Positions 16,592-40,410 of a stretch of 64,000 nucleotides of DNA are shown one piece after another. The notes beneath the pieces were generated by a model. It was not told where the DNA came from. It ran no database searches and was given only the letters and a program-made list of their open reading frames with translations. The translations under genes were made by a program, and so were the position numbers. This DNA is from an uncultured beta proteobacterium (GTDB taxonomy: Bacteria > Pseudomonadota > Gammaproteobacteria > Burkholderiales > SG8-41), in assembly GCA_902825845.1 (NCBI GenBank), contig CADECM010000017.1:3077-67076 (forward strand). Reading direction: 5' to 3'. Each line of letters starts with the position of its first letter. Positions within the stretch are counted from its first letter, which is position 1.

Positions 16592-17311
16592 TCAGCCCGG
16601 CGCAAGCAGCGACACCGACTCGTGCATCGCGACTTTGCTGTCCGGCCCCTTGAAATGGGCGATGCATACACCTTCGGGCGCCGCGCGCGCTTCCTCGAAC
16701 TCCCAGCGCGAGCGTACCGAGCGGTTATAGATATCAATGTCGAAATGGCGCACCGTGAAGCGTCCCGGCGCTTCCAGTTCGCTTTTCAGCGTCACCTGGT
16801 CGCCGTACCAGCGGTGAAAACGCTTGGGCAGCCGGCGCAGCGCGTTTAACTGCCGCAAAAACACGATCGTCGAACGCACATAGACGAAGGAAAAGATATA
16901 CGGCATCACCTGCGCCGAGTCCTTCTCCGTGAACTCCGGAAATTCCGCCCAGTCGCGTTCGGGAATGCGGTAGGTATCGCGCTCGCCGCGCCGGGTCACG
17001 CCGACCTCGTTCTCGGCCAGCGGCGGCAGATCGAACGCGCGCAACAACAGCATGTCCGCATCCAGAAACAGCGTCGGTTCGCTCACGCTCAGCGCGGCGT
17101 ACGCTTCCAGCCGCGCCACCATGATGTGGCGCGACAGCTTCAGCTTCTTGTGGGTGGTGACGCCGTCGACCATCGGCGTGTCGCGGTCCGACAGTTGATG
17201 CACGTTGAAATCCGCGCCATGGGCCGCGCGGATCGAGCGCACCAGCATCGACGGAATGGTGGTGTCCTGGCCGATCCAGAAAAAGGCGATGTGCTTGAGG
17301 TTTTGATTCAT
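16592..17311 (-). CDS. putative DXD-type nucleotide-sugar glycosyltransferase
   Basis: 239 aa with IAFFWIGQD...LFLDADMLLL (DXD). Fold assignment is by resemblance only. Confidence 0.4.
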   Translation of the reverse strand: MNQNLKHIAFFWIGQDTTIPSMLVRSIRAAHGADFNVHQLSDRDTPMVDGVTTHKKLKLSRHIMVARLEAYAALSVSEPTLFLDADMLLLRAFDLPPLAENEVGVTRRGERDTYRIPERDWAEFPEFTEKDSAQVMPYIFSFVYVRSTIVFLRQLNALRRLPKRFHRWYGDQVTLKSELEAPGRFTVRHFDIDIYNRSVRSRWEFEEARAAPEGVCIAHFKGPDSKVAMHESVSLLAPG

Positions 17312-17321
17312 GAGCCCGGGG

Positions 17322-19226
17322 TCATTCGGTGCTGCGCGCGCGGCCGAACAGCAGGGTGATGTTGATGCGGCGGTTTTCGTAACCCGGCTTGAAATGCAGT
17401 TCGTCGGTCACATGGATCAGACTGGAATCGAACATCACGCAGCGGTTTTCGCGGTACGGCACGCGCTGCGCCCTGGCGTCGTGCACTTTCAGGTAGGCCT
17501 GGAGTTTTTCCGGATTGCTGTTGTAGTCGGCGAAGGTCCAGCTTTTCGGAACCGGGTGATTGTAAATCACCATGCCGCCGGTGGCGGGATCCGCGCAGGA
17601 TGCATCGGGCGTGACCCAGAAATTCACATTGACCCTGGCAAAATCGGCGTGCATGGTGATGCCGCGCATGCGCTGATCGTATTTGAAGCCCCACGCCTGC
17701 AGCAGCGCAAAGTCCTGAATCACCCGCGGCATCTTCTGACGCAGTTGGTCGGCGATCGCCAGCAACACCCGCGGCGCGAAACCTTTCACCAGCAGCGCGC
17801 CGGCATAGCCGCCGGGGTTGTACATCTTCCACACCGTGGCTTCTTCGCTGAAACGGCGCAATTCCGCGAGCGCGTCCGCGCTCAGAAACTGGTCGATTAC
17901 CACCAGTTTCTCCGCGGCGTAGCGTTCCTCGAGCGCGGCGTAATCGTTGTTGCCGAGCGCGGCGCCCGCAAACGGCGTGTCGGGACAATAATGCACGTCG
18001 CACAGTGCCTGGCGCAATGCGCCGGCGGCTGGTTCTTCCGGCGCAAAGGTCTGCGTGGTGTCGCGCGACTGCGCGTAATACGGCTTTAACACCTGCAGCG
18101 CCTGCCGGCCGCCGGTATCCAGCTTGCCGCGCCGTTGCAGCAGTTCGAGCTGCTCGTAGTCATGGCGAATGCGCGGTTCCGGGACGGGCCACGGCAGGTG
18201 GCCATAGGCATCACGGTGTTGCACATTCAGATCGAGGCACTGGCGCAGCCGCCGCGCGGCATCGTCCACCTGGCCGCGCCGCAACTGTTCCAGTCCGCGC
18301 AGCAAAATGCAATCGATGTCGGTTGCCATGGCGGCGGCATGCTGAGCGCAAAAAGCCGCCAGCGCCCCGGCGTCCCCGCCGTCAATATACAGTTTCAGCA
18401 ACGCCCGAATCGCCGCCAGTGGCGGCGGCGTCGCGGCAAGCGCGCGCTGATAGGCCGCCATCGCCTGCGCCGCACAGTCCAGCCCGGCATAAGCCAGGCC
18501 GAGCTCGATGTGCAGCTCATGCGGGACCAGGTCCGCCGCCGTCATTGCATCGAAGGCGGCGATGGCCGCGTAGTGGTCCCCCAGCATGTTCTGGCAGCGC
18601 ATGATCTGCAGGGTGGTCGGCGGCGAGCCTTTGTTGATCTGGTTCGCGCACAGCGCGTTGCCCAGCGACTCGTGATAATTCTTGAAGGTGAAATTCGCGT
18701 TGCTCAGTACCATCAGGGCGCGGTAGTTGGCACCGTCCGTCGCCAGCACGGCGCACGCCAGCTGGTAGGCGCGCATCCAGTCGCCGGCCGCCGCCGACAC
18801 TTCGGCCATCACCACAAGCAGAAAGGACTCGCCCACCGGTGGTAGCGGCTGTCTGCACACATGGGCATACGCTTCGTCGATGTGCCCGTTCGTCTGCAGT
18901 ATCATCAGAAAAAACGCTTCGCCGTCCGGACAGATGGCGGGATCGGCAATCGCCCTGCGTCCCAGGCCCAACGCGTCCTGCGCACGGCCTTCGGCCAGCA
19001 GCTTCACCAATGCCGCGCTGCTATCGCGTGCCCACGGCAATGTCCACGCGCGGCTCTGGCAGACAAACACGGCATTATCGATTTCGCCGGCGACGAACAG
19101 GCACACCACCGCTTCAAACGCGTCTTCATCCGAGAGCGGCGGCTGGGGTTTCAGCAATTCGAGCGCGGCCGCTGTCTGGCCCGAGGAACGCAGGCGGTTG
19201 ATTTCGGAATAAACGGTGGAGAGCAT
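17322..19226 (-). CDS. TPR-like helical repeat protein fused to a 2OG-Fe(II) oxygenase-like domain
   Basis: 634 aa. The C-terminal ~200 aa carry ITMHADFARVNVNFWVTPD (HxD) and DSSLIHVTDE...RRINITLLF (distal His, Arg), consistent with the prolyl-hydroxylase-type double-stranded beta-helix. Confidence 0.6.
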   Translation of the reverse strand: MLSTVYSEINRLRSSGQTAAALELLKPQPPLSDEDAFEAVVCLFVAGEIDNAVFVCQSRAWTLPWARDSSAALVKLLAEGRAQDALGLGRRAIADPAICPDGEAFFLMILQTNGHIDEAYAHVCRQPLPPVGESFLLVVMAEVSAAAGDWMRAYQLACAVLATDGANYRALMVLSNANFTFKNYHESLGNALCANQINKGSPPTTLQIMRCQNMLGDHYAAIAAFDAMTAADLVPHELHIELGLAYAGLDCAAQAMAAYQRALAATPPPLAAIRALLKLYIDGGDAGALAAFCAQHAAAMATDIDCILLRGLEQLRRGQVDDAARRLRQCLDLNVQHRDAYGHLPWPVPEPRIRHDYEQLELLQRRGKLDTGGRQALQVLKPYYAQSRDTTQTFAPEEPAAGALRQALCDVHYCPDTPFAGAALGNNDYAALEERYAAEKLVVIDQFLSADALAELRRFSEEATVWKMYNPGGYAGALLVKGFAPRVLLAIADQLRQKMPRVIQDFALLQAWGFKYDQRMRGITMHADFARVNVNFWVTPDASCADPATGGMVIYNHPVPKSWTFADYNSNPEKLQAYLKVHDARAQRVPYRENRCVMFDSSLIHVTDELHFKPGYENRRINITLLFGRARSTE

Positions 19227-19863: not shown

Positions 19864-20661
19864 CTACCGGGTGCGCGTCATATTGAAGCGGCCGCTGCCG
19901 TCGGTGGTGAACTGGATGTGCACCGCGTTCTGCGGGTGCTGCGCGACGTAGTCGTCGGCGAAGATTGCCGTGATCCCGTAGCCGAGATGGCGCAGGAAGG
20001 CGAACAGTTTTTCCTTCTCCGCCGTGTACCAATCCGCGTTCCAGGCTTCGAACAATAGCGGCGGGAAATGGCCGGCCTCCAGCAGGTTGACCCCGCCTTG
20101 CAGCACCTTCAGGTCGTAGCCCTCGACATCGATCTTCCACAGACAGGGTGGTTTGGGAAACGGGATGCTGTCGAGCCGGGCCAGCGGCGTTTCCAGCGGC
20201 GGCTTGTCACTCTGCAGGATCACGCAACCGGTTTTTTCGCGGATGTCCTCGTCCAGTGAAAACCCGCCGACGTTGCTGCTCTTGCTGAAATCCAGCGCGG
20301 GTATGCCGATCGTTCCGTCGCTATCGCCGAGTGCCATGCAGTGAGCGAACACATTGTCCACGCTGTTCAGGAAAATATTGCCGCATAGCTGATAGTAGAC
20401 AATGCGCTGTGGCTCGTAGGCGTAGATGGTTCCCTTCACGCCGTCGAGCGCGCGTGCCAACGGCACGGCGTATGCGCCCAGGTTGGCGCCGATATCGAGA
20501 ATCAGCGGTTCCGCGATGCCGTGAACGAACATGCGACTGATGGCCACCAGATGCGGCTCCCAGGTGCCGCGGCGACGCAGATGCAGGCCAATCGCGTCAT
20601 CCGTTGACAGCAACAGGTAGTCGGCATCCTGGCATCGCACCAGATCAATTTTTGGCAGCAC
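19864..20661 (-). CDS. FkbM-family SAM-dependent methyltransferase
   Basis: 265 aa with ILDIGANLGAYAVPLA...IYAYEPQ...LWKIDVEGYDLKVLQG, typical of Methyltransf_21/FkbM. Confidence 0.8.
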   Translation of the reverse strand: MLPKIDLVRCQDADYLLLSTDDAIGLHLRRRGTWEPHLVAISRMFVHGIAEPLILDIGANLGAYAVPLARALDGVKGTIYAYEPQRIVYYQLCGNIFLNSVDNVFAHCMALGDSDGTIGIPALDFSKSSNVGGFSLDEDIREKTGCVILQSDKPPLETPLARLDSIPFPKPPCLWKIDVEGYDLKVLQGGVNLLEAGHFPPLLFEAWNADWYTAEKEKLFAFLRHLGYGITAIFADDYVAQHPQNAVHIQFTTDGSGRFNMTRTR

Positions 20662-20804: not shown

Positions 20805-20832
20805 ATAAAGTAAAGTAAAATCAATGACTTAC
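20805..20832 (+). repeat. AT-rich A-tract/IHF-core motif copy S5
   Basis: ATAAAGTAAAGTAAAATCAATGACTTAC with an exact core AATCAATGACTTA. The ATG inside it is the FAH-family start codon (20824). Confidence 0.55.
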
Positions 20833-21513
20833 GCCATAGACTTTCCAGGTATCACGACCCTGCCGGTCGCCGAAAGCCATCAGGCTTTTCCGGTCGGACG
20901 CATTTATTGCGTGGGTCGCAACTATGCCGAGCATGCGCGCGAAATGGGCCACGACCCGGATCGCGAGCCGCCATTTTTCTTCATGAAGCCGCCCGATGCG
21001 ATCGTGATGAGCGGCGCCACCCTGCCGTATCCCACCATCACCCAGGATCTGCATCACGAGATCGAAATGATTGTCGCGATCGGCAAGGGCGGCAGGGATA
21101 TTCCCGTTGAAAAAGCACTGGACCACGTGTTCGGTTACGGCGTCGGACTCGACATGACGCGCCGCGACGTGCAGGGCGAAGCCAAGAAAATGGGCCGGCC
21201 GTGGGAAATGGGCAAGGCGTTCGATGAATCCGCGCCTTGCACCGCGCTCAAGACCGTCGCCATGGTCGGCCATCCCGCCAAGGGCGCGATCACGCTCAAG
21301 GTCAACGGCGTGGTGAAGCAAAAAGGCGATTTGTCCGAAATGATCTGGAACGTGCCGGAAACCATCGCCTATCTGTCGAAGATGATCACGCTGCGTCCCG
21401 GCGACCTCATCATGTCGGGCACGCCGTCCGGCGTCGGTCCGGTGCAGCGCGGCGACAAACTCGAAGGGCACGTGGACGGCGTCGGCGATCTGACCATCAG
21501 CTACGCCCGATAA
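20824..21513 (+). CDS. fumarylacetoacetate hydrolase (FAH) family protein
   Basis: 229 aa with IYCVGRNYAEHAREMG...FFFMKP...HHEIEMIVAIGK...PWEMGKAFD...GTPSGVG. Confidence 0.9.
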   Translation: MTYAIDFPGITTLPVAESHQAFPVGRIYCVGRNYAEHAREMGHDPDREPPFFFMKPPDAIVMSGATLPYPTITQDLHHEIEMIVAIGKGGRDIPVEKALDHVFGYGVGLDMTRRDVQGEAKKMGRPWEMGKAFDESAPCTALKTVAMVGHPAKGAITLKVNGVVKQKGDLSEMIWNVPETIAYLSKMITLRPGDLIMSGTPSGVGPVQRGDKLEGHVDGVGDLTISYAR

Positions 21514-21530
21514 GCGAAAGCCGCACGCGC

Positions 21531-22745
21531 GTGAGGGACGCCGCGCCGCTGCGCGCGTTGGCCGCCGCCAAGCTGGCCGAGGGCCGGGTGGCAGCCGCGA
21601 TCCGCCACGCGCGTGACTACCTGCACGCCACGGGCGCGCCGGCGCCGGTGGTGGCGTATGCCTTGCGCCAGCCGGCGCAGGCTGCCGACGGCAAAGGGGT
21701 GCGCGAGATTCGCGTGCTGGAGGACGCGGCCATTGCCTCCACCGCGCGCCTGACCAACGGACTGCAGCAACACGTGCATTGGTCCGAACCCTGGCGGCCG
21801 CCGGCGTTGCGTGTGCTGGCACTGAGCGATGCAGCGGCGCTGGCGCCGAACCTGATCCTCGACGCGGGCGGGGTGCTGCTCGACGACAACATCGGCTTCA
21901 ATAACAGCGAATTGTGCGATCACCTGCCGCCGGACTACAACGGTATTGTGGCCGCCGGTGGCCGCCTGCTGCTGGCGGTGCGCCATCGCACGGTCGCGCG
22001 CGTGGCCGAGCCGGCGCTGTATCTGCCCGCGCCGGGCAACTATGCGGCGTGGCTGTTTGGCAGCCTGCCGCGGCTGGCGGCGTACGCCTCCTGCGCGGGC
22101 TTCGGGCAACTGCCGATCGTGGTGCATGGCGACGTGGCGAACCACCACCTCGACGCGTTGCGCGCGATGGGCATAGCCCACGAACGTCTGCGCATTCACG
22201 GCGCGCGGGTGCGCCTCGAATGCAAGGAACTCTACTACTGCACCACCAGCTATTTTCATCATGCGCCCAGCGCTTCCGGCGTGCGCCATGTGCGCGAGCG
22301 CGTGTTGGCCGCTGTTGGCGCGGGCGCGGATGAGCCAGCGGCACCGCGCGTGTATCTCGCGCGCCGCCATGCAAAGGACCGGCCGCTGCTGAATGAACCC
22401 GAGGTCGTGGCGCTGTTCGAGCGCCACGGCTTCGTCGCCATCGATCCCGAGCAGCACAGCTTCGAGGCGCAAGTCCGATTCGTCACCGGCGCGCGGGTGC
22501 TGGCCGGCCCCTATGGCGCCAATCTGGCCAACATGGTGTTTGCGCGGCAGGCCGACAAGTTATTGATTCTGGCGACCAAGCACCAGCCGGAATTCGCGCG
22601 GCTGGCGAGCGCCTTGGGCATCGCCTGCTGGCACACCGTGCCGCAGGGCATTGAATTGCGTGAAGGGCGCACGCTGAGCGAGTCCTTCGGCTACCGCGCG
22701 AATCTGGATGAACTGGAACGGGTGTTGCAGGCTTGCCTCGCATGA
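21531..22745 (+). CDS. GT61/DUF563-family glycosyltransferase
   Basis: In frame with track ORF 21237..22745, whose 5' part overlaps the FAH gene. Putative GTG start at 21531. RVYLARRHAKDRPLLNEPEVVALFERHGFVAIDPEQHSFEAQVRFVTGARVLAGPYGANLANMVF matches the conserved GT61 C-terminal block. Confidence 0.6.
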   Translation: MRDAAPLRALAAAKLAEGRVAAAIRHARDYLHATGAPAPVVAYALRQPAQAADGKGVREIRVLEDAAIASTARLTNGLQQHVHWSEPWRPPALRVLALSDAAALAPNLILDAGGVLLDDNIGFNNSELCDHLPPDYNGIVAAGGRLLLAVRHRTVARVAEPALYLPAPGNYAAWLFGSLPRLAAYASCAGFGQLPIVVHGDVANHHLDALRAMGIAHERLRIHGARVRLECKELYYCTTSYFHHAPSASGVRHVRERVLAAVGAGADEPAAPRVYLARRHAKDRPLLNEPEVVALFERHGFVAIDPEQHSFEAQVRFVTGARVLAGPYGANLANMVFARQADKLLILATKHQPEFARLASALGIACWHTVPQGIELREGRTLSESFGYRANLDELERVLQACLA

Positions 22746-23409: not shown

Positions 23410-25098
23410 CTACAGCGCGAACCGGTCGCGCAATGCCGCGGCAACGCGGCGAATCACATCGGACCATTCGGCAATGGCGGTCTGCCGGAACAGTCGCGCA
23501 CTCGGGTACCACAGACAGTCATCGCGATCCGCCATCCAGCGCCAATCGGGATTGAAGGGCAGCATCACCCACAGCGGTTTGCCCATGGCGCCGGCCAGAT
23601 GCGCGACGCTGGTGTCGATGGAGATGACCAGGTCCACGGCCTCCGTCAGCGCGGCGGTGTCGGCGAAATCGTGTAACGCGTCGCCGAAGTGGCGAACATC
23701 CGGGCGCGACGCGAGCAGCGGCGCGTCGGTCTCGCGCACTTCCTTTTGCAGGCTGATGAGTTCGATGCCGTCGCTTGCCAGCGCCAGCGCCTCGGCCAGT
23801 GCCATGCTGCGGTTCGGGTCCGGCAGCAGGTTGCCGCTCCAGGCGATGCCCACGCGCGGGCGGGTTTTCCCGCCCAGCCGCTGCTGCCATTGTGTACTGC
23901 GCACGGCATCGGCGGCGAGATACGGCACGTCGCGCGGCAGGGTGTCGGCGTTGGCGTGAAAGGCCAGCGGCAGGCTGGTGACCGGGCAATGGATGTCGAA
24001 GGGCGGGAGCGCGGCGCCCTGCGCGATGACTTGCGTCACGCCGCCGAGAGTGGACAACAGGGATTGCAACGCGGGCGGCGCTTCCAGAATCACCGTCGCG
24101 CCCAGCGCCGCAACGCGGCTCGCGTAGCGGCAAAACTGCAGCATGTCGCCCAGCCCCTGCTCGGCATACAACAGGATGGTCCTGCCGGCGAGAGATTGCT
24201 CGCCGCGCCACAGCGGTTGCGGGTAATCGCGCCGGAAGCGCGCAACCTGATCCTGCTTCCAGCGCCACTCGTAGCCCGCCCAGCCGCGCTCGAAATCGCC
24301 CAGCAACAGGCGGCACAGGGCGAGGTTCCACTGTGCATCGGCATGTTCCGCGTCAATGGCGATCGCCTGCTCGTAGGCGGCGATGGCTTCGCCGTAGCGC
24401 CGCAGATCGGCGAGCGCTGCGCCAAGATTGCTGTAGGCATCGGCGAACTGTGGCTCCAGCGCGATCGCGTGCCGGTAGCACGCGATGGCTTCCTCGTGCG
24501 CGTTGCGCTCGGCCAGCGCCACGCCCAGATTGCACAGCGCATCCACAAAATTGCCGTCGAGGGCAAGCGCGCGGCGATAGCTGGCAATGGCTGCGTCGTG
24601 GCGGCGCAATGCGGCCTGCGAATTGCCGAGGTTGTACCAGGCCTCGGCGTAGCCGGCGTTCGCCGCGATGGCGCGTTCGAAGCTGACGATGGCTTCCTCG
24701 TGCCGCTGCAGGTCGGCCAGCGTGCCGCCGCGATTGTTGTGGGTTATCGCGTGACCGGGCCGTAATGCAATGGCGCGGTCAAAGCATTGCAGCGCTTCGT
24801 CGTGGCGCCTCAGGTTGCGCAGGGTAATGCCCAAATGGCCGTGCACCGCGGGGTCGCCAGGTGCCGTGCGCAGCGCACGTGTGAACAAATCCACCGCCTG
24901 TTGCGGACGGCCGGACTGTGCCGCGGCCAGTCCCAGCAGCGCGAGGGTGTCCGGATGATCCGGCAACTGCTGCAATACCCGCTGTCCCAGCCGCTCGCAT
25001 TCGGCAAAGTTGCCGGACTGATACGCAGCAAACGCCTGCTGCAGGATAGCGACGGGTTGGGGCACGCGCGTGAGTGTTTCGACGTAGGTTAACCGCAA
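23410..25098 (-). CDS. TPR-repeat protein fused to a GT9-like (heptosyltransferase-fold) domain
   Basis: 562 aa with ~8 N-terminal TPRs. The C-terminus has ILLYAEQGLGDMLQFCRY, RVGIAWSGN and DTAALTEAVDLVISIDTSVAHLAGAMGKPLWVMLPFNPDWRWM...WYPSARLFRQ. Confidence 0.8.
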   Translation of the reverse strand: MRLTYVETLTRVPQPVAILQQAFAAYQSGNFAECERLGQRVLQQLPDHPDTLALLGLAAAQSGRPQQAVDLFTRALRTAPGDPAVHGHLGITLRNLRRHDEALQCFDRAIALRPGHAITHNNRGGTLADLQRHEEAIVSFERAIAANAGYAEAWYNLGNSQAALRRHDAAIASYRRALALDGNFVDALCNLGVALAERNAHEEAIACYRHAIALEPQFADAYSNLGAALADLRRYGEAIAAYEQAIAIDAEHADAQWNLALCRLLLGDFERGWAGYEWRWKQDQVARFRRDYPQPLWRGEQSLAGRTILLYAEQGLGDMLQFCRYASRVAALGATVILEAPPALQSLLSTLGGVTQVIAQGAALPPFDIHCPVTSLPLAFHANADTLPRDVPYLAADAVRSTQWQQRLGGKTRPRVGIAWSGNLLPDPNRSMALAEALALASDGIELISLQKEVRETDAPLLASRPDVRHFGDALHDFADTAALTEAVDLVISIDTSVAHLAGAMGKPLWVMLPFNPDWRWMADRDDCLWYPSARLFRQTAIAEWSDVIRRVAAALRDRFAL

Positions 25099-26170: not shown

Positions 26171-26776
26171 ATGGACGGTGACCGACACATGAAGCTCAAT
26201 CTGGGTTGCGGCGACAAGATTCTCGAGGGCTACGTCAACGTGGACGTTGCCGAAAGCCGCGCCGGCAAGCGGCCGGATGTGTTGTGCGATCTGCACCAGT
26301 TGAAGCCGTTCGATGCCAATGTGGCGGACGAGATTCTGTCGGTGCATGTGGTCGAACACTTCTGGCGCTGGGAAGTGGTGGCGGTGCTCAAGGAATGGGT
26401 GCGGGTGCTGAAACCGGGCGGGCGCATGATTCTGGAATGCCCGAATCTCAAGTCGGCGTGCGAAGCCTTTTTGGCCAACCCGGAATTGCACGCCGGTCCC
26501 GGTCAGGAAGGGCAGCGCACCATGTGGGTTTTCTACGGCGATCCGTCGTGGACCGATCCGCTAATGGTGCACCGCTGGGGCTATACGCCGCAGAGCCTGG
26601 CGGCGATCATGCGGGAAGCCGGACTCACGGCCATTCGCCAGGAGCCCGCGCAGTTCAAATTGCGCGAGCCGCGCGACATGCGCATCGTGGGCACCAAACC
26701 CGATGCCGCGCAGCCCGCACAGGGTACGGCGCAAACGCGCATCGGTGTGTCGTGGAGCACGTCCTACAAGCTGTAA
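26171..26776 (+). CDS. class I SAM-dependent methyltransferase
   Basis: MKLNLGCGDKILEGYVNVD...SVHVVEHF...VLKPGGRMILECP. The start may be 26189. Confidence 0.75.
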   Translation: MDGDRHMKLNLGCGDKILEGYVNVDVAESRAGKRPDVLCDLHQLKPFDANVADEILSVHVVEHFWRWEVVAVLKEWVRVLKPGGRMILECPNLKSACEAFLANPELHAGPGQEGQRTMWVFYGDPSWTDPLMVHRWGYTPQSLAAIMREAGLTAIRQEPAQFKLREPRDMRIVGTKPDAAQPAQGTAQTRIGVSWSTSYKL

Positions 26777-26791: not shown

Positions 26792-27856
26792 ATGACAATC
26801 GCAGGGAATCCTGTTCGTGCGGACATCCTGTGGCTGGTGACGCCGGTGGTAACACCCTACCTGCACGCGGCACGGGTGGAGCAGGCGTTGCTGTCTTGCG
26901 ACCTTGCCAGCGCGCGCCTGCGCATGGGGGTTGCCGCCAGCGCCTGGCGCGCGGCGGGAGGAACGAACCGCTTTATCGAAGCGACGCAGCACCAGCAGGC
27001 TGGTGATTTATCAGCCGCGGGCATCTGCGTGGTTCCCAAATTCGCCGGCGATCTGCCGTTGGCGCCGTGGCTGGACGCCGTGCAGGCGGTGAAGCGGGCG
27101 GGTGCGCGGCTGGTGATCGATATCTGCGACTACCCGTTTCGCACCGACAAGGGCGCTGTGCCCGCGTTTTATCGCGAAGCGCTCAAGCTCGCCGATGCCG
27201 TCGTGGTCAACGCACAGCGCATGGCTGAACAGATGACGCCACATTGCCGCCAGCCGGTGACGGTGATCGAAGATGCCGTGCTGGATGAAGCCGCCACGCC
27301 GCGCTTCGCGCCCGCGGGCCGGCTGAATCTGCTGTGGTTCGGGCATCCGTCAAACCTGCGATTCCTCGAACCGTGGATTAACGTACTGATCGAACAAGGG
27401 CCGAAGCCGTGCCGTCTCACCGTGGTGAGCGAGGATGGATTCGGCGTGAAAGAGGCGGCTGCCAGCCTTAACGCACAACTGGCGCCATCGTTCGAAATGG
27501 CATTCGTGGATTGGTCGCTCGCAGCCACCCGGCGCGAACTGGAACGCTGCGACATTGCCATTCTGCCCAGCGATCCGGCGGACGCGCGCAAAAGCGGCGC
27601 TTCCGCCAATCGCCTGGCGGAAGTGTTGCAGGCCGGGCGCTTTGCGGTGGCGAGTCCGCTGCACAGCTACCTCGTATTCTCGGAGATGGCGTGGGTCGGC
27701 GAGAATCTGCTGCAGGGTCTGCAGTGGTCGCTGGCGAATCCCGAGGGGGTCATCGCACGCATCCACAAGGGGCAGGCGCTGGTGCGCGAGCACTATGCGA
27801 TGGATGCGATCGGACGGCAGTGGCGGGCATTTTTCGCCGCGCTGCCAGCGGGCTGA
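26792..27856 (+). CDS. putative glycosyltransferase (GT-B-like)
   Basis: 354 aa. Called from context and weak resemblance (C-terminal ILPSDP...SANRLAEVLQAGRFAVASP like the GT1/GT4 nucleotide-sugar-binding half). Confidence 0.4.
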   Translation: MTIAGNPVRADILWLVTPVVTPYLHAARVEQALLSCDLASARLRMGVAASAWRAAGGTNRFIEATQHQQAGDLSAAGICVVPKFAGDLPLAPWLDAVQAVKRAGARLVIDICDYPFRTDKGAVPAFYREALKLADAVVVNAQRMAEQMTPHCRQPVTVIEDAVLDEAATPRFAPAGRLNLLWFGHPSNLRFLEPWINVLIEQGPKPCRLTVVSEDGFGVKEAAASLNAQLAPSFEMAFVDWSLAATRRELERCDIAILPSDPADARKSGASANRLAEVLQAGRFAVASPLHSYLVFSEMAWVGENLLQGLQWSLANPEGVIARIHKGQALVREHYAMDAIGRQWRAFFAALPAG

Positions 27857-34640: not shown

Positions 34641-34672
34641 AAACCAGGTCGTGATGCCTGTATTCGCACTAC

Positions 34673-34818: not shown

Positions 34819-34944
34819 TTGAGCTTGGTTTTTCGCGCTTGCATACTGCATTCGTCCTTTACCAATGAGTAAGGCGAACCGCTCGCGAGGAGAAGTCAGG
34901 CTGGACTACTTGGGGGCAAAGTTGAACACACAAAGGAGAATTAC
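34819..34944 (+). promoter_or_regulatory. predicted sigma70 promoter plus conserved 5'UTR of porin 3
   Basis: TTGAGC (34819-24), a 17-nt spacer and CATACT (34842-47). The leader keeps TTCGTCCTTTAC..GTAAGGCGAA.CGCTCGCGAGGA and a hairpin with a compensatory change (AGTC..GACT versus GGTC..GACC). Confidence 0.5.
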
Positions 34945-36242: not shown

Positions 36243-38699
36243 CTACTCGCCCAGCATTTCCCGGTACAAGGCCTCCAGGTTACGCGCAAACGCGGGGGTG
36301 TCAAACAGCGGCGCGCTGTCGCGGGCCAGTGCGAGGCGGTCACGGAAGGCCTGCAGCACCGCGGGTTCGAGCGCAAGCCGCAGCGCCAGCGCTTCATAGT
36401 CGTGCAGGTTGGTGGTGATCAGGTCCGCGAGATTGGCGGCGGTCAGCACGCTGCCGCTCACGCGCGCGGCGAAGGTGTCGGCGCACAGTCCCACCGCAAG
36501 GCAGCCGCACCACAGGCCGTCGCTCAGCGTGGTGTGCGAGGTATACGGCCAGGTGTCGAGCGCCAGATCGGCCACGCGGTAACGCGCGAGGTGCAGCGCG
36601 TACGGCATGCGTGGTGCAAATACCAGCCGCTCCGCCGCGATGCCTTGCGCGCGCGCGGCTGCGGCGAGGTTCTGTTTCGCCGGTGCGTTGCTTTCCACCA
36701 GCCACAGCACGCTGCCCGGCACCTTGTCGAGCAGGCGCATCCAGACTTCGAACACATCCGGCGTGATCTTGTAGGTCTGGTTAAAGCAGCAAAAAACGAA
36801 TCCCTGCGCCGGCAAGCCGTAAGCCTCGCGCGACAGCGGCTCCGCGATCTCGCGCTTGCGGTCATTGGGCTGATAACAGTGCGGCATGCGTAACACGCGT
36901 TCGGCACAACTGCTTTCTTCGCCGTCGCGGATGATATAGGGATCGGCGATCAGGTAATCCACGAAGGGCGCGCCGGTGGTGCCGGGATAACCGAGCCAGG
37001 TCACCTGTATGTCGCACGGCCGATGCGCCATGATGGTCAGCCGGTCGCCCACGGTGTACCCCTTGATCTCGATCAATATGTCGATTCCGTCGCGCCGAAT
37101 GCGTTCGGCGGCGATGTCGTCCGGATCCCACGCGATGTCGACGAAGTGCTCCACCGCGCGCATGATGCGCAGCCGCATGGGGCTTGCGTCCTGCGGCCCA
37201 TAGGAATACGCGAATATCTCGTATTGCCCGCGGTCGTGCTGTTCCAGCAGATCCGCCACCAGGTACGCCGCCGCGTGTTCCTGAAAATCGGCTGATAGAT
37301 AGCCGATGCGCAGGCGCCGGCCGGCGTATTGGGCTGAACCGGCACCGTGCCTGCGGGGCGGGGTTGCGATCGCCCCATAGCGGGCCGCGGCCCAGCGCGT
37401 GGTGTACTGCAATTGCTGCCGCGGCGTGATGGGTTCGCACAACAGCCAGAACGGACTGCCCAGCATGGCGTCGCTGTCGAGCAAGGGCGTCATGCGGGCC
37501 CACGCCTCGCGCCAGCGCGGCCAATCGCAAATCTGGCGGTACTGGTTCGTCAACTGGCCCAGTATTTCGCCGTCACGCGTGCGCTCATAGCTGCGTTCGA
37601 GCAGGGAAATCGCCTCATCGAATCGCTGGCGGTAGAGCAGGAGGTTGGCGATCAGCGTGCAGGCGGCGGTCGAATCGGGCGCGCGCTCGATCCAGCGCTG
37701 TCCAACCGTTTGTGCTTCGTCCAGCTGCCCGACTTCGAACAGGGCGTTGGCCAACGCCTGCAGCGCCGCGACGTTGTCCGGTTCCGCGTCCGCGACAAAG
37801 CGCATATGCGGCAACGCTTCACTGGTGCGGCCCAGCGCGAGACAGCTCAGGTAGAGGCCCTCGCGCGTGCCCACATCGTCCGGCGCCGCGCGCAGCGCCG
37901 CAAGAAACTGCTCGCGCGCCTCGCTGTGCCGGCCGAGCACGGACAGGGACCTGCCGGCGCCGCAGGCGGCCGCCGGCATGCCGGGCGCGGCGGCAAGGGC
38001 ACGGTGGTGGCACGCCAATGCCGCTTCGAAATTCTGCTCCCGCTCGCGCACCACGCCCAGGTTCACCCAGGCTTCGGCATGCTGCGGCTGCGCGCGCGCG
38101 GCGCGTTCAAACCAGGCAGCCGCGGCGGCCAGATCGCCCTGTTCAAGGTCGATGACGCCGAGGTTAAACAGGGCATCGGGGTGATTTGAAAATTGCTGGA
38201 CGATCAGCTCGAACTCCGCGCGCGCGCCGGCGGTGTCGCCGGCGCGGTAGCGTGCCTGGCCAAGGTTGACCCGGATATCCGGTTCCCGCGGCGCCAACTG
38301 TGTCGCGCGCTGCAACTCGGCAACCGCTTCCGGCACGCTGCCCAGATTCAGCAACGCCATGCCGAGGCGCATGAACACGATGGCGGGCGCGCGCGGTATC
38401 GCCGCGGCACGGCGCAGTACGCCGGCGGCGTCGGCGAAACGTCCCAGCATCAGATAGGCAAGCCCGAGTCCGTCCAGCACCATGCCGTTGCGCGGATCGG
38501 GGAGCAGCGCGCGCTCGAGCGGTTCAACCGCCGTTGCCGCATCGCCGGCGGCCATGTGCGCCATACCTTTGATCCACAGCGCCTGCGGATGTGCGGGTGT
38601 GCGGCGCAGTATGGATTCGACAATGGCGAGGGCGCCATCAATGTCGCCATTCTGCAAACAGGCCTGCGCTTTATCGAACTGTGCGTCCTGCCGGGGCAT
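36243..38699 (-). CDS. TPR-repeat protein fused to GT41 (O-GlcNAc transferase-like), second paralogue
   Basis: 818 aa with ~11 TPRs. The C-terminus has LRIGYLSADFQEHA, VTWLGYPGTTGAPFVDYLIADP, FVFCCFNQTYKI and DTWPYTSHTTLSDGLWCG. Confidence 0.85.
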   Translation of the reverse strand: MPRQDAQFDKAQACLQNGDIDGALAIVESILRRTPAHPQALWIKGMAHMAAGDAATAVEPLERALLPDPRNGMVLDGLGLAYLMLGRFADAAGVLRRAAAIPRAPAIVFMRLGMALLNLGSVPEAVAELQRATQLAPREPDIRVNLGQARYRAGDTAGARAEFELIVQQFSNHPDALFNLGVIDLEQGDLAAAAAWFERAARAQPQHAEAWVNLGVVREREQNFEAALACHHRALAAAPGMPAAACGAGRSLSVLGRHSEAREQFLAALRAAPDDVGTREGLYLSCLALGRTSEALPHMRFVADAEPDNVAALQALANALFEVGQLDEAQTVGQRWIERAPDSTAACTLIANLLLYRQRFDEAISLLERSYERTRDGEILGQLTNQYRQICDWPRWREAWARMTPLLDSDAMLGSPFWLLCEPITPRQQLQYTTRWAAARYGAIATPPRRHGAGSAQYAGRRLRIGYLSADFQEHAAAYLVADLLEQHDRGQYEIFAYSYGPQDASPMRLRIMRAVEHFVDIAWDPDDIAAERIRRDGIDILIEIKGYTVGDRLTIMAHRPCDIQVTWLGYPGTTGAPFVDYLIADPYIIRDGEESSCAERVLRMPHCYQPNDRKREIAEPLSREAYGLPAQGFVFCCFNQTYKITPDVFEVWMRLLDKVPGSVLWLVESNAPAKQNLAAAARAQGIAAERLVFAPRMPYALHLARYRVADLALDTWPYTSHTTLSDGLWCGCLAVGLCADTFAARVSGSVLTAANLADLITTNLHDYEALALRLALEPAVLQAFRDRLALARDSAPLFDTPAFARNLEALYREMLGE

Positions 38700-38797: not shown

Positions 38798-39688
38798 TTG
38801 ATTGCAGCCACTTCCTCCATGCGCATCGCCGTGGTGACGGCATCCAACGATGCCTACTTTGACAGCCTTGATTTGCTGCTTCAATCGCTTGCGGGGTTTG
38901 AGCGCTACGGCGACATTGGGACGCATGTGCTGGATGTCGGCTTGAACGAAACACAGGTGCGCACGCTGCAGGCCGCGGGGCATGTCATCGTGCGTCCCGG
39001 CTGGGATGTCGATGTGTCGCCCTGGAAAGGCGTGCCGGCGTGGTTCAGGGCAATGACCGCGCGCCCTTTTCTGCCCAAACATATTGCCGGCGCCGATTTG
39101 TTGTTGTGGCTCGATGCGGACATCTGGGTGCAGGACCAGGACATGTTGTATGACTACGTGCGTGTGGCGCAGGGGGGCAGTCTGGCCGTGTGCCTGGAAA
39201 TGGACCGCAGTTACGACAATGTGTTCATGCGCAATGCGAGCAGGGAAATCTACCACGACAATCTGCTGAAGTATTATGGCCAGGAGGCGGCCAACCGGCT
39301 GATCCACCTGCCCATGATGAACTGCGGCGCATTCGCCATGCGGCGCGATCATCCCTTGTGGACCTTGTGGCAGACCACCATGCAGGGCGCGGTGAAGAAG
39401 CACTGCTCCAACTTCCTGGAGCAGACTGCGCTCAATATGGCGGTGTTCAGCGGTAACATTGCGCCGCATTTTCTGCCGGCGCGCCATAACTGGATGGCCT
39501 GTCACGCGGTGCCGATGCTGGATGAGGTCAGCGGCCAGTTTGTGGAACCCGCCGTGCCGCACGACAGGCTGGGGCTGGTGCATCTGGCGTGCGGTCTGTG
39601 GAAACGCGATGATGTCGATTTCCGCAGCACCGCCGGCAAGCTGTTAAAGGGACCGCTGCGTACACGCGCAGCGGCAAAGGCGGGCTAA
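38798..39688 (+). CDS. GT8-like glycosyltransferase
   Basis: RIAVVTASNDAYFDSL, LLWLDADIWVQD (DXD) and LEQTALNMAVF. The start may be the ATG at 38819. Confidence 0.55.
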   Translation: MIAATSSMRIAVVTASNDAYFDSLDLLLQSLAGFERYGDIGTHVLDVGLNETQVRTLQAAGHVIVRPGWDVDVSPWKGVPAWFRAMTARPFLPKHIAGADLLLWLDADIWVQDQDMLYDYVRVAQGGSLAVCLEMDRSYDNVFMRNASREIYHDNLLKYYGQEAANRLIHLPMMNCGAFAMRRDHPLWTLWQTTMQGAVKKHCSNFLEQTALNMAVFSGNIAPHFLPARHNWMACHAVPMLDEVSGQFVEPAVPHDRLGLVHLACGLWKRDDVDFRSTAGKLLKGPLRTRAAAKAG

Positions 39689-39726
39689 GTGCGCCTTGCG
39701 CTCACGGTTTCCGGCGGGCGGACGCC

Positions 39727-40410
39727 ATGATTAACATCTGTATCGGCTACGACCCGCGCGAGGCGGTGGCCTTCAGCGTGCTCGCGTACAGTATCCATGC
39801 CCGCGCCACGCAGCCGGTGTCCATCGCGCCGCTGATGCTGTCGCAACTGGGCGGAGTGTTGACGCGCGAGCGCCATCCCCTGCAAAGCACGGATTTTTCC
39901 TTTTCGCGGTTTCTCACGCCGTATCTGTCGGGCTTTGCGGGTTGGTCCCTGTTCATGGATTGCGACATGCTGGTGCAGGAGGACGTTGCAAAGCTGTGGG
40001 CATTGCGCGACGACAGGTTTGCCGTGATGGTGGTCAAGCACGAGCACGTTCCGAGGGAGACCACCAAGTTCCTCGGCGAGCCGCAGACGAAATACGAAAA
40101 GAAAAACTGGTCCAGCGTGATACTGTTCAATAACGCGAAATGCCGGGCACTCACGCCGGGCTATGTGAACACGGCATCGGGACTCGATCTGCACCAGTTC
40201 AAGTGGCTGAACGACGACGCGCTGATCGGCGAGCTGCCCGACCGCTGGAATCATCTGGTGGGGTACAACCCGCCGCGCGCCGATGCGGCGTTGGTGCATT
40301 ACACGCTGGGCGGACCGTATTTCGCGGAGTACGCCGGCTGCGAATACAGCGCGCAGTGGCGCCGCGAACGCGACGCCATGCTGAGCATCAGCGCCGCCAA
40401 AAAAACTTAG
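39727..40410 (+). CDS. GT8-like/DXD glycosyltransferase
   Basis: 227 aa with INICIGYDPREAVAFSVLAYSI, SLFMDCDMLV (DXD) and HYTLGGPYF. Confidence 0.5.
   Translation: MINICIGYDPREAVAFSVLAYSIHARATQPVSIAPLMLSQLGGVLTRERHPLQSTDFSFSRFLTPYLSGFAGWSLFMDCDMLVQEDVAKLWALRDDRFAVMVVKHEHVPRETTKFLGEPQTKYEKKNWSSVILFNNAKCRALTPGYVNTASGLDLHQFKWLNDDALIGELPDRWNHLVGYNPPRADAALVHYTLGGPYFAEYAGCEYSAQWRRERDAMLSISAAKKT

Follow-up and report, generated by a model that had tools for sequence, protein, structure and literature searches.

[quoted passage not shown] FlmG joins TPR to a GT-B domain; its TPR domain binds flagellin, and the donor is set by the GT-B domain (PMC7591256; bioRxiv 10.1101/2022.03.25.485807). The PilA link of Ogt and the flagellin binding of FlmG serve as precedents for the 64,000-nt stretch of DNA analysed here (the window). 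Our best reading of the window, to which we give about an even chance, is a cytoplasmic, TPR-guided glycosylation of exported surface proteins as putative acceptors.

Gene content of the window

The window is a Burkholderiales-type chromosomal stretch in which soluble enzymes that add sugar, methyl and hydroxyl groups, fused to TPR arrays of the protein-binding kind, really are unusually concentrated. Five TPR-enzyme fusions lie inside 30 kb and zero in the remaining 34 kb, a density that looks well above chance expectation. The interval from 16.6 to 40.4 kb holds four TPR-fused enzymes, namely one 2OG/Fe oxygenase, two GT9-fold proteins and one OGT-type GT41; together with FkbM, class-I methyltransferase, GT61, three small GT-A-like genes and one weak GT-B-like gene, they stand around three tandem porins:

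9263..11479, minus: TPR + GT41 (OGT-type) 'a'; PF13844 E 1e-81 plus TPR families; outside 16.6-40.4 kb
16592..17311, minus: 239-aa GT-A-like protein, LDAD motif; 10 bp downstream of the TPR-2OG gene
17322..19226, minus: TPR-like N-terminal region + 2OG/Fe(II) oxygenase, hydroxylase type (H-x-D...H...R), 634 aa
19864..20661, minus: FkbM-family SAM methyltransferase; PF05050 E 5e-10, TIGR01444 E 1e-19
20824-21513: FAH hydrolase, an interleaved housekeeping gene
21531..22745, plus: GT61-family glycosyltransferase; PF04577 E 4e-22; 17 bp after the FAH gene
23410..25098, minus: TPR + GT9-fold 'a'; strong TPR matches and sub-threshold PF01075
25177..26166, plus: aldo-keto reductase, a backbone gene; PF00248 E 1e-69
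26171..26776, plus: class-I SAM methyltransferase (MT11); PF08241 E 3e-10
26792..27856, plus: 354-aa protein, possibly GT-B-like; weak GT4 N-terminal matches, E 0.02-0.08
27860..29851, minus: TPR + predicted GT9-fold 'b'; TPR families; divergent from porin 1
30742-31974, 32883-34112, 34945-36150, plus: three tandem Porin_4 genes; PF13609 E 1e-39 to 5e-45
36243..38699, minus: TPR + GT41 (OGT-type) 'b'; PF13844 E 2e-85; convergent with porin 3
38798..39688, plus: 296-aa GT-A-like protein, LDAD motif; PF00535 E 0.002, below cut-off
39727..40410, plus: 227-aa GT8-like glycosyltransferase (GT8s); PF01501 22.3 bits vs cut-off 24.3

The enzyme genes of the original prediction are all present, as ORFs and translations, at or near the positions given, and scores above curated cut-offs or strong homology confirmed FkbM, GT61, the class-I methyltransferase, TPR-GT41 and the three Porin_4 genes. 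It was likewise correct that the interval's four TPR fusions share the minus strand and flank the porins on both sides. No signal peptide or transmembrane segment was found in any enzyme of the set. Family searches of 16.6-40.4 kb detected no Wzx/Wzy/Wzz, ABC exporter, initiating transferase or nucleotide-sugar genes, and the 64,000-nt window contains no pilin, flagellin or adhesin genes.

Housekeeping genes (HIT, DedA-like, FAH and aldo-keto reductase) are interspersed among the enzyme genes, and the idea of a single dedicated contiguous locus had to be given up on account of these and of two genes, GT61 and the 296-aa gene, that have no counterparts in related loci. The region is best explained as a plastic chromosomal island among housekeeping genes, coding for soluble cytoplasmic modifying enzymes. 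The aldo-keto reductase is syntenic and 56-75% identical across lineage-A loci; it probably shares a transcript with the two genes that follow (intergenic distances of 4 and 15 bp), and its membership of the system is uncertain. The HIT, DedA-like, FAH and aldo-keto reductase genes had been passed over earlier, as had the fifth TPR fusion, the TPR-GT41 at 9263-11479 (minus).

TPR-fused enzymes

The window GT41 pair is bona fide OGT-type. In a comparison with the PDB, TPR-GT41 'b' matches XcOGT (4e-76) and human OGT (2e-75), and in the alignment the positions of XcOGT H218 and K388, which we take to be active-site residues, are occupied by H and K. Orthologues with 47-59% identity are present in L001, L008 and L062/63.

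The folds that had been proposed for the TPR-2OG oxygenase and TPR-GT9 'b' are borne out by AF2 models. For the 634-aa protein, TPR matches in the family search are weak, and its assignment as a 2OG/Fe(II) oxygenase is confirmed by predicted structure only: the C-terminal domain was modelled with a pLDDT of 93.9, and Foldseek places the oxygenase domain with BesD/Hal, PHD2, P. putida P4H and Ofd1 at E of about 1e-8 to 1e-7. The residues H186, D188, H265 and R279/R280 are invariant across 45 homologues; 527 homologues were found in all, and most full-length ones have the TPR fusion.

The C-terminal domain of TPR-GT9 'b' has no Pfam match, and its GT9 fold is similarly confirmed only by the model (pLDDT 89.1), for which the best Foldseek matches are the GT9 protein 3tov, WaaF, WaaC and TibC. 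Syntenic orthologues (43-52% identity) occur in L001, L008, L055, L056, L060 and L064. TPR-GT9 'a' reaches 18 bits against PF01075 (cut-off 22) and aligns with the GT9-like domain of 27860..29851; its homologues, with 30-43% identity, are present in most related islands.

Glycosyltransferases and methyltransferases without TPR arrays

Apart from GT61, the remaining glycosyltransferase assignments are weak. Of the two genes described as GT8-like, the one at 39727 is a near-threshold PF01501 match and the one at 38798 shows only a weak GT2 match. The putative GT-B at 26792 goes no further than the GT4 N-terminal matches listed above, and the supposed DXD glycosyltransferase at 16592 has its LDAD motif and homologues at 28% identity within related islands (L064, L002), with no Pfam or NCBIfam match. 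The full GT61 ORF spans 21237-22745 (plus), and translation could plausibly begin near 21531, since this position follows the FAH stop at 21513; no GT61 homologue was found among about 100 fetched loci. The 296-aa protein is limited to the window's own assemblies (L089, L090) and shows no co-conservation.

Related islands repeatedly carry FkbM genes. MT11 has homologues with 72-76% identity that stand immediately upstream of the GT8-like gene in two loci (L024, L029) and share its island in a third (L034). Homologues of the 354-aa protein (31-47% identity) are found within a few kb of the GT8-like gene in L024, L029, L034, L055 and L064, directly upstream of MT11 in the first two.

Co-conservation in related loci

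The module was anchored on GT8s. This gene has at least 8000 homologues, of which the best 120 are all at least 79% identical, and in 80 metagenome loci it is 71-82% identical. Of the 40 loci whose flanks were long enough, 28 have a TPR-GT (TPR-GT9 or TPR-GT41) at most 5 kb from GT8s; such loci often also hold MT11, the 354-aa protein, FkbM and TPR-2OG. The combination of GT8s and TPR-GT was seen on at least four distinct chromosomal backbones (porin/AKR/FAH; PilB/HD-GYP/pilin/Sox; COQ7/trp; others). The check for co-conservation thus came out in favour of the core genes, which recur jointly in dozens of loci.

We consider it rather improbable that there is no single system, that is, that the window samples a large, scattered multigene family of TPR enzymes with separate targets, possibly in regulatory O-GlcNAc-like modification of cytoplasmic proteins, whose local clustering would stem from tandem duplication and a hot spot for insertions rather than from a pathway. 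TPR-enzyme genes in these bacteria also occur one at a time amid housekeeping genes and therefore need not form one pathway. TPR-GT41 'a' itself is inserted in the ubiE...ubiB operon, with a Tim44-like gene on one side and ubiJ on the other; TPR-2OG homologues sit between gph and trpE/trpD in one relative, four TPR-GT genes adjoin trp genes in L007, solitary copies occur in Burkholderia sp. RPE67, and tandem paralogue arrays in a Gemmataceae genome and B. arboris. The GT9-like family alone comprises about 16,500 representative clusters (E <= 1e-30), some of its proteins having 2-10 domain copies, and the interspersed housekeeping genes and the two genes without co-conservation point the same way. 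However, GT8s, MT11, the 354-aa protein, FkbM and TPR-GTs co-occur repeatedly on different backbones, and comparable FkbM + TPR-GT sets are found in Azospirillum and Salipiger; both observations argue that at least the core is functionally coupled.

Lipid-linked glycans

GT8 and GT9 are classical LPS-core families, and LPS-core transferases require no Wzx/Wzy. The main rival to protein glycosylation, unlikely in our judgement, is that GT8s, the GT9-fold and small GT-A proteins and the methyltransferases act at the inner face of the membrane, where they add and methylate sugars on lipid A-core or on a lipid-linked glycan that contains Kdo; the product would then leave through the general MsbA/Lpt or Kps machinery, whose genes lie elsewhere. 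It owes this rank to a Sinorhizobium orthologue of GT8s that sits in a poly-Kdo capsule region. This S. meliloti pSymB gene (60% identical) has a GT39 gene on one side and a cluster of a transferase, a membrane-anchored protein and kdsB on the other, with kpsF nearby; kdsB2, smb20804 and smb20805 affect the poly-Kdo capsule (PMC5539429). The best Foldseek matches of the GT9-like domain include the LPS heptosyltransferases, and JGI names GT8s 'lipopolysaccharide biosynthesis glycosyltransferase'. The absence of nucleotide-sugar genes, true of the interval, is not general: in one relative the same slot holds genes of dTDP-amino-sugar type (aminotransferase, formyltransferase, dTDP-sugar isomerase and dehydratase), and L077 and L083 have a gene that by eye reads as cytidylyltransferase-like. 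These points weaken the original proposal of a system "rather than an LPS or capsule locus". On the other hand, we know of no TPR arrays on characterised LPS-core enzymes, and to our knowledge every characterised GT41 member modifies proteins. In roughly 100 loci, waaA, waaL, kinase and other core genes were missing throughout, and distant homologues form operon-like units with autotransporters or have pilins, adhesins and flagellar genes nearby. For an LPS-core enzyme, the 70-80% identity of GT8s between genomes that range from 46 to 69% GC is unusually high.

Porins and other exported proteins

The three porins are 75-82% identical to each other, carry signal peptides and have a GC content of 54-57%; copies 2 and 3 have one S/T/N-rich variable loop. 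They are neighbours and candidate substrates. That the island glycosylates or hydroxylates their surface loops before export is a long shot in our estimation. The order TPR-GT9b, porin(s), TPR-GT41b is shared by the window, L001 and L008; TPR-GT9b adjoins a porin also in L055, L060 and L064 (with two genes between in L056), and TPR-GT41b in L062 and L063. TPR-protein identity among these loci is only 43-59%, their GC contents run from 47 to 67%, and the site holds one to three porin copies; the GT9-like family is also found beside other beta-barrel proteins, the autotransporters. But the porin-linked loci all share the AKR, FAH, MgtE, ODC backbone, so the adjacency can be inherited synteny; the porin neighbourhood is restricted to the window's own lineage, and on other backbones the module has no adjoining porin, which leaves the earlier proposal of a porin substrate resting on one syntenic lineage. 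Both flanking TPR genes, moreover, are on the strand opposite to the porins. Burkholderiales carry numerous Porin_4 genes and S/T/N-rich loops are ordinary in porins, which further weakens the idea, and for a general porin no case of glycosylation in the cytoplasm is known to us.

Elsewhere the module accompanies other exported proteins. In a sister lineage its neighbours are a PilB-like ATPase gene on one side and type IV pilin genes on the other, and pilin genes (PF00114 + N_methyl) lie within the island on the same strand in 14-18 loci. Pilin-linked loci belong to one backbone and porin-linked loci to another, so each association may be a single ancestral arrangement.

For the preferred reading, cytoplasmic glycosylation of exported surface proteins, the recurring core consists of two TPR-GT9-fold proteins, the TPR-2OG hydroxylase and the OGT-type TPR-GT41 (another copy lies 25 kb away), joined by the 227-aa GT8-like protein, the class-I methyltransferase, the 354-aa GT-B-like protein and FkbM. 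Each TPR array would bind an acceptor protein in the cytoplasm; the fused GT-B domain would then move sugar from a nucleotide-sugar straight to Ser/Thr, or the fused oxygenase hydroxylate a side chain, without lipid carrier or oligosaccharyltransferase. The small GT-A/GT-B enzymes and methyltransferases may extend and methylate the glycan before the modified acceptors, for which the adjacent porins and a type IV pilin encoded elsewhere are the candidates here, are exported to the envelope or cell surface. Counted against this is the Sec dependence of pilins and porins, which raises the question of how one already glycosylated in the cytoplasm would get out, although HMW1 and AIDA-I are known to be glycosylated ahead of export. 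A further point against it is that GT8s stands alone, with no TPR genes, in several backbone-B loci and on a Paracoccus plasmid. What stands of the proposed protein-modification system is a set of soluble cytoplasmic enzymes, several with TPR arrays, the GT41 pair, and homologues of the GT9-like domain beside exported-protein genes in unrelated bacteria; that these enzymes recur jointly across many related genomes fits an uncharacterised surface-protein decoration system.

Among these homologues, Enterobacter pENTE01 has the order TPR-sulfotransferase, GT9-like gene, autotransporter, and in Thalassospira an autotransporter is grouped with a GT9-like gene and a TPR-sulfotransferase. A B. glumae plasmid carries a TPR-GT9-like gene and GT41 alongside YadA-like adhesins, while on an Azospirillum plasmid five TPR/TPR-GT genes and FkbM adjoin a protein of >6600 aa with Ig-like domains. 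A flagellar cluster of Salipiger contains FkbM and a TPR-GT9-like gene. The smallest pilin-linked island consists of HD-GYP, GT8s and pilin.

Organization of the modifying-enzyme region

The original prediction placed a cluster of modifying enzymes around a porin array and read it as a system for protein (perhaps envelope-protein) glycosylation, hydroxylation and methylation. Using a gene map built from ORF lists, codon-position GC and Pfam and NCBIfam scans, we confirmed the cluster, with corrections to single enzyme calls. The window (GC content of about 63%) is an ordinary Burkholderiales-type chromosomal segment in which the modifying enzymes are interspersed among housekeeping genes: ubiE, a Tim44-like gene, ubiJ, ubiB, HIT, an FAH-family hydrolase, an aldo-keto reductase (AKR), mgtE, an ECF sigma/anti-sigma pair (42087-43414), an Orn/DAP decarboxylase (ODC), glyQS, lnt, corC, phoH, miaB, dsbC and mltA.

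Modifying-enzyme and porin genes of the window
9263-11479, minus: TPR-GT41 fusion (first copy), outside the predicted interval
16592-17311, minus: 239-aa gene with a "DXD" call
17322-19226, minus: TPR-2OG fusion
19864-20661, minus: FkbM methyltransferase
21531-22745, plus: GT61
23410-25098, minus: TPR-GT9-like fusion (562 aa)
26171-26776, plus: class-I methyltransferase
26792-27856, plus: 354-aa protein
27860-29851, minus: TPR-GT9-like fusion (663 aa)
30742-36150, plus: three tandem Porin_4 genes, mutual identity 75-82%
36243-38699, minus: TPR-GT41 fusion (second copy)
38798-39688, plus: 296-aa gene
39727-40410, plus: 227-aa GT8-like gene

The four TPR fusions of the interval are all on the minus strand, as had been described, and lie around the three porins, the last two (27860-29851 and 36243-38699) bracketing them. 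The fifth fusion, at 9263-11479, interrupts an otherwise conserved ubiquinone operon on the same strand (7064-13416, minus) in the order ubiE, Tim44-like, TPR-GT41, ubiJ, ubiB. Several island genes are separated from their neighbours by very short gaps, namely AKR, the class-I methyltransferase and the 354-aa gene (25177-27856, plus; 4 and 15 bp), TPR-2OG and the 239-aa gene (16592-19226, minus; 10 bp), and the FAH hydrolase and GT61 (20824-22745, plus; 17 bp), which suggests operons that mix island and housekeeping genes. A foreign origin of the island was considered and appears unlikely: the enzyme genes share both GC content (62-66%) and GC3 pattern with the housekeeping genes. The tandem porins have a GC content of 54-57%, compared to 62-66% nearby, with spacers of about 0.85-0.9 kb; at the same site relatives carry one to three copies.

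The reported absence of the usual polysaccharide machinery was borne out: the interval lacks genes for Wzx/Wzy/Wzz, for an ABC exporter or an initiating transferase and for nucleotide-sugar synthesis. Across the scanned ORFs from 13.9 to 42 kb, which comprise every gene called there, we found no flippase, polymerase, chain-length regulator, ABC exporter or initiating phosphoglycosyltransferase. None of the island enzymes carries a signal peptide or a transmembrane or hydrophobic segment.

Two OGT-type TPR-GT41 enzymes

Both TPR-GT41 proteins score well above the curated threshold of PF13844 (287.5 bits for 36243-38699 and 275.2 bits for 9263-11479, against a cut-off of 25), and their N-terminal arrays match many TPR families with E-values of 1e-20 to 1e-37. 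In a phmmer search of the PDB, the GT41 domain of 36243-38699 matched Xanthomonas XcOGT (4e-76) and human OGT (2e-75). The HMMER alignment places a histidine and a lysine of this protein opposite H218 and K388 of XcOGT (2jlb), the active-site histidine and lysine of that enzyme. All sequence-level features that we tested agree, and both genes are assigned to the OGT family.

The TPR array N-terminal to the GT41 domain is shared with XcOGT (PDB-codes: 2jlb, 2vsn), Synechococcus elongatus Ogt, Nostoc OgtA and Listeria GmaR, and like the bacterial OGT-type GT41 enzymes the two proteins are cytoplasmic and have no signal peptide. Synechococcus Ogt and Nostoc OgtA act on pilin, and GmaR on flagellin. 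Related betaproteobacterial loci carry TPR-GT41 genes flanking type IV pilin genes, as does cyanobacterial ogt, which adjoins pilin genes in 38% of cyanobacterial genomes (PMC9306852). Unlike the bacterial OGT systems, the window has two GT41 copies amid other TPR-fused enzymes and no pilin.

GT9-fold TPR enzymes

The two TPR-GT9-like calls stood at the level of structure and not at that of the sequence profile. With PF01075, 23410-25098 scored 18 bits (cut-off 22) and 27860-29851 had no match, and TIGR02193 matched with an E-value of 0.0015, far under its cut-off. This match and that of the FkbM protein to TIGR01444 apart, the NCBIfam scan returned generic TPR look-alikes. In an AlphaFold model (pLDDT 89.1), the last 329 residues of 27860-29851 form a GT-B fold nearest to GT9. 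With Foldseek, this domain matched 3tov with an E-value of 2.7e-7 (TM 0.57) and 1psw with 1.5e-6; 3tov, WaaF and WaaC were its best matches, and the protein heptosyltransferase TibC was also matched, WaaC and TibC more weakly. Searched by sequence, the PDB yielded no useful match to the domain or to the GT9 profile.

The family to which this domain belongs is very large. A profile of the domain retrieved 40,936 representative proteins from the whole protein library at E ≤ 1e-3; tightening the threshold to E ≤ 1e-30 left 16,489. The top matches are very large proteins, 1.3-3.1 kaa long, in which the domain occurs 2-10 times. The family has no Pfam model, and we found no characterised TPR-GT9 member in the literature.

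By profile the GT9-fold enzymes are placed outside GT9, and by sequence outside the BAHT enzymes; in mode of action they would most resemble FlmG, OGT or BAHT enzymes. FlmG of Caulobacter and Brevundimonas has the same TPR plus GT-B plan and a similar size (596 aa compared to 562 and 663 aa). FlmG is a flagellin O-glycosyltransferase whose acceptor is bound by the TPR domain and whose donor is set by the GT-B domain (PMC7591256; bioRxiv 10.1101/2022.03.25.485807). A Salipiger homologue of the GT9-like domain lies with an FkbM gene inside a flagellar cluster, a FlmG-like context; the window itself has no flagellar or nonulosonic-acid genes. The BAHT enzymes Aah and TibC modify a protein in the cytoplasm that is afterwards exported via Sec, and the mode proposed here would be alike. 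TibC shares the GT9-like GT-B fold (chains 4rb4 and 4rap, E-value of 5e-4 or weaker, TM about 0.5), and homologues of the GT9-like domain lie directly upstream of or adjoining autotransporter genes, as is the case for Aah and TibC. On the other hand, no sequence likeness to TibC or Aah was detected by phmmer or profile search of the PDB with the domain, its profile or an Enterobacter homologue. The BAHT enzymes, unlike the GT9-fold enzymes, have no TPR array, and the TibC structure is an iron-containing dodecamer (according to the title of 4rap/4rb4). The window contains no autotransporter gene, and the adjacency is seen only for distant homologues (Enterobacter, Thalassospira).

Of the heptose pathway, the window contains a single candidate gene, at 47012-47593; it is probably a GmhB-like HAD phosphatase, judged from its HAD matches, and we take it to be a housekeeping gene.

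A TPR-linked 2OG oxygenase and the small enzymes

The oxygenase domain of TPR-2OG has no Pfam profile match, and the call made originally is upheld by its fold, an H-x-D...H triad and a basic 2OG-binding residue. In an alignment of 45 homologues, H186, D188, H265 and R279/R280 are invariant. In Foldseek, the AlphaFold model of the domain (pLDDT 93.9) had over 500 matching PDB chains with E ≤ 1e-3, and the top matches are all 2OG/Fe(II) oxygenases: BesD/Hal amino-acid hydroxylases/halogenases, PHD2, P. putida P4H and Ofd1. The presence of H-x-D rather than H-x-G/A points to a hydroxylase type. PDB sequence searches with the 2OG domain gave nothing useful, the search with its profile was dominated by TPR matches, and the literature yielded no characterised TPR-2OG family member.

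The animal hydroxylases AspH and collagen prolyl hydroxylases carry TPR domains. A TPR-type binding region combined with a 2OG/Fe(II) double-stranded beta-helix bearing H-x-D...H is shared with AspH, the collagen prolyl 4-/3-hydroxylases and the bacterial P4H that acts on EF-Tu. To the animal enzymes this is a likeness of architecture alone, with no detectable sequence relationship, and the nearest structures of TPR-2OG, BesD/Hal, are free-amino-acid hydroxylases/halogenases, unlike the protein hydroxylases AspH and P4H.

The FkbM call exceeds its curated cut-offs (PF05050, 40.1 bits compared to 22.7; TIGR01444, 71.2 compared to 37.7), as do GT61 (PF04577, 79.5 bits compared to 27) and the class-I methyltransferase. 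For the remaining four genes, called "GT8-like" (two), "GT-B" and "DXD", the genes are present and the family assignments are weak. The 227-aa GT8-like protein has a DCD motif and scores 22.3 bits with PF01501 (cut-off 24.3), although some close homologues have a precomputed PF01501 match; it has no sequence relative in the PDB. The 296-aa gene has a sub-threshold GT2 match, the 354-aa gene shows hints of a GT4 N-terminal domain (E-values of 0.02-0.08), and the 239-aa "DXD" gene has no Pfam family match.

Could these enzymes decorate LPS or a capsule-type glycolipid instead of a protein? The GT8 and GT9 families are the classical ones of the LPS core, whose enzymes are soluble and work without Wzx/Wzy. 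The GT9-like domain has WaaF, WaaC and 3tov as its nearest structures, and the 227-aa protein has its borderline GT8 match. The latter also has an orthologue on S. meliloti pSymB (L092, 11986-12675) with 60% identity, an unusually high conservation between classes for a glycosyltransferase. The orthologue is located between a GT39 gene and a group encoding a transferase, a membrane-anchored protein and kdsB, with kpsF near. In S. meliloti, kdsB2, smb20804 and smb20805 affect the poly-Kdo capsule (PMC5539429). Against a kinship with WaaC, WaaF, WaaJ or the S. meliloti capsule region are the TPR fusions present here, the Pfam GT9 and GT8 scores below the gathering thresholds and the lack of further core or capsule genes nearby. 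The GT8-like protein, at 227 aa, is also much shorter than WaaJ-type enzymes, which have 330-340 aa. We consider decoration of a glycolipid unlikely; if LPS were the target, TPR-fused core transferases would themselves be new.

Co-conservation on several chromosomal backbones

The original prediction depended on the genes being conserved together. This was found for the core genes, which recur together on several backbones in the related loci that we fetched. It was not found for GT61 and the 296-aa gene, which have no counterpart in any fetched locus and therefore probably lie outside any conserved system. In our literature searches we found no betaproteobacterial module of this kind. The genome of the window is absent from the representative genomes, where the best relative shows 45% identity, and the 663-aa protein had no exact match; by its GT8-like protein the window was traced solely to Logan assemblies of ERR3089229 and ERR3089233.

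Chromosomal backbones carrying the island
Backbone A: lineage of the window, containing a porin, AKR and FAH; 47-67% GC, nine loci
Backbone B: a PilB-like ATPase and HD-GYP before the island, SoxB/X/A, MoaC and BepA after it; 52-69% GC, about 25 loci
Backbone C: COQ7 and trp genes; L002 and L007
Other backbones: L082; L085/L004

According to tblastn with the window proteins, a related Burkholderiales MAG (L001) shares the backbone of the window, with the order ODC, anti-sigma, ECF, MgtE, a homologue of the second TPR-GT41 (50%), one porin, a homologue of the 663-aa TPR-GT9-like protein (45%), AKR and FAH, with HIT and TPR-2OG farther along. Homologues of the 227-aa GT8-like protein number at least 8000, and each of the best 120 shows at least 79% identity; in a metagenome scan, 80 loci with 71-82% identity were retained. 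Flanks of 4 kb or more were available in 40 loci, and in 28 of these a gene for a TPR-GT9 or TPR-GT41 enzyme is no farther than 5 kb from the GT8-like gene. Its neighbourhood often also contains the class-I methyltransferase (72-76% identity), the 354-aa protein and FkbM, and in two loci (L060 and L064) TPR-2OG is directly downstream.

Between the conserved genes the content varies. In a backbone A locus (L008), the slot between the 663-aa TPR-GT9-like gene and AKR is occupied by a DegT aminotransferase, a formyltransferase, a dTDP-sugar isomerase, a dehydratase and FkbM. Genes read from sequence as a putative cytidylyltransferase, TylF-type and CmcI-type methyltransferases, GT25 and an IS630 transposase occur in other islands. 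The locus acts like a hypervariable glycosylation island with conserved anchors. In a further locus (L091, ENA contig_30285, 9375-15427), two TPR-2OG homologues are placed among gph, trpE and trpD, and porin genes come next; the locus shares PhoH, MiaB, UbiH-like, DsbC and MltA genes with the right end of the window. This arrangement implies that TPR-enzyme insertions extend past the window.

The same loci bear on the possibility that these are unrelated paralogues without a common pathway. The GT8-like gene occurs without any TPR gene, in the order IspG, GT8-like, SoxB in some backbone B loci and alone on a Paracoccus plasmid. Lone TPR-enzyme genes sit amid housekeeping genes, such as TPR-GT41 in the ubi operon and the TPR-2OG copies of L091, and Burkholderia sp. 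RPE67 has a solitary TPR-enzyme copy. The GT9-like family is also huge, with proteins of 2-10 domain copies among its 40,936 members. The recurrence of the core genes together makes this explanation rather unlikely. Nevertheless, the LPS-family kinship, the capsule-region orthologue, the lone GT8-like genes, the scattered TPR genes and the size of the family mean that a single pathway stays a proposal.

Candidate protein targets

No pilin, flagellin or adhesin gene is present in the window; a motif scan for type IV pilin N-termini found none there, and tblastn of the pilin, PilB, HD-GYP, MT216, C11 and C15 clusters gave no match to it. The proposal that the porins are the targets gains from a conserved porin neighbourhood, but the conservation extends over backbone A only, and the adjacency may therefore be inherited synteny. 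That the adjacent porins specifically are the substrate appears improbable to us.

Pilins emerged from clustering of the neighbours of the GT8-like gene. Type IV pilin genes (PF00114 plus N_methyl) are found in 14-18 loci, one or two per locus, inside the island and on the same strand. They are flanked by both GT9-type and GT41-type TPR genes, and the island border is formed by a GAF-MshEN-T2SSE (PilB-like) ATPase. The minimal order is HD-GYP, GT8-like, pilin. Pilin-linked loci include L017, L021, L034, L043, L045, L046, L065, L076, L078, L081 and L086, adjoining soxB/X/A. The module of this sister lineage, placed between the PilB-like ATPase/HD-GYP pair and the pilins, looks like a pilin-glycosylation island. 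The pilin-linked loci are all on backbone B and so may represent few independent events.

Flagellin, which the original prediction had named beside pilin as a partner to look for, was found in none of about 100 loci, as probed with an approximate N-terminal sequence of E. coli FliC, and was rejected as local partner. A flagellar context is seen for one distant homologue, in Salipiger abyssi, where FkbM and a TPR-GT9-like gene lie within the flagellar cluster.

Other distant homologues of the GT9-like domain lie beside further surface proteins. On plasmid pENTE01 of Enterobacter sp. 638 (L098, 6596-12809), a TPR-sulfotransferase, a GT9-like gene (27% identity, E-value of 2e-20) and an autotransporter follow each other on one strand, and a Thalassospira marina plasmid (L100, 8626-14657) has a GT9-like gene, a TPR-sulfotransferase and an autotransporter. 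Both arrangements resemble Aah/AIDA-I, with a different transferase family and an added sulfotransferase. On a Burkholderia glumae plasmid, a TPR-GT9-like gene and a GT41 gene accompany two genes for YadA-like adhesins, and on an Azospirillum plasmid five TPR/TPR-GT genes, GT2, GT4 and FkbM adjoin the gene of an Ig-like domain protein that exceeds 6600 aa. In these independent contexts the recurring partners are exported surface proteins. Aah/AIDA-I, TibC/TibA and HMW1C/HMW1 are known pairs of a transferase and its exported target, and the pattern is as in these and in FlmG/flagellin. In the literature on betaproteobacterial TPR-GT and pilin systems and on glycosylated porins we found no direct precedent.

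Proposed mechanism and implications

Domain identities, cytoplasmic location, co-conservation and neighbourhoods form the basis of the mechanism that we propose. The most likely mechanism, which we hold with about as much doubt as confidence, is the TPR-guided modification in the cytoplasm of proteins that are exported later. The TPR array would pick the protein acceptor in the cytoplasm, and the fused GT-B domain (GT41 or GT9-fold) would move a sugar straight from the nucleotide-sugar to it. A fused 2OG domain would hydroxylate a residue of the acceptor; the GT8-like protein, the 354-aa protein, the class-I methyltransferase and FkbM may extend and methylate the glycan, and the modified protein would be exported afterwards. 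The leading candidates for the acceptor in this organism are a pilin encoded elsewhere and the adjacent porins. On this reading the module would belong with the systems of cytoplasmic TPR-guided protein modification.

In a bolder form of this proposal, which we regard as improbable, these Burkholderiales would use an OGT-like "decoration code" for envelope proteins. Paralogous TPR adaptors would, in the cytoplasm, each pick another protein destined for export, namely the porins in this genome, type IV pilins in the sister lineages and autotransporters/adhesins elsewhere, and a heptose- or GlcNAc-type sugar or a hydroxyl would be added before export; the GT8-like protein, the class-I methyltransferase, the 354-aa protein and FkbM would then extend and methylate the glycan. 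General porins would, in that case, be glycoproteins.

To our knowledge, only a handful of cytoplasmic TPR-guided protein glycosyltransferases have been described (OGT/pilin in cyanobacteria, FlmG/flagellin and GmaR). Judging from the literature that we searched, the very large GT9-fold TPR family has no characterised member, and the same holds for the TPR-2OG fusion and for the ultra-conserved GT8-like partner of 227 aa. If pilins, porins or adhesins are modified, this would be a widespread, oligosaccharyltransferase-independent route to glycosylated bacterial surface proteins. It would also give names to tens of thousands of proteins labelled merely "tetratricopeptide repeat protein" and have a bearing on phage and predator recognition of environmental Betaproteobacteria.

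Other features of the window

Glycyl-tRNA synthetase alpha and beta are usually encoded by two genes in Proteobacteria. In the window a fused glyQS (47542-50712, minus) forms one ORF of 1056 aa with both the alpha (PF02091) and the beta (PF02092) subunit. A tRNA gene at 60482-60555 (plus) is the sole Rfam match across the whole window.
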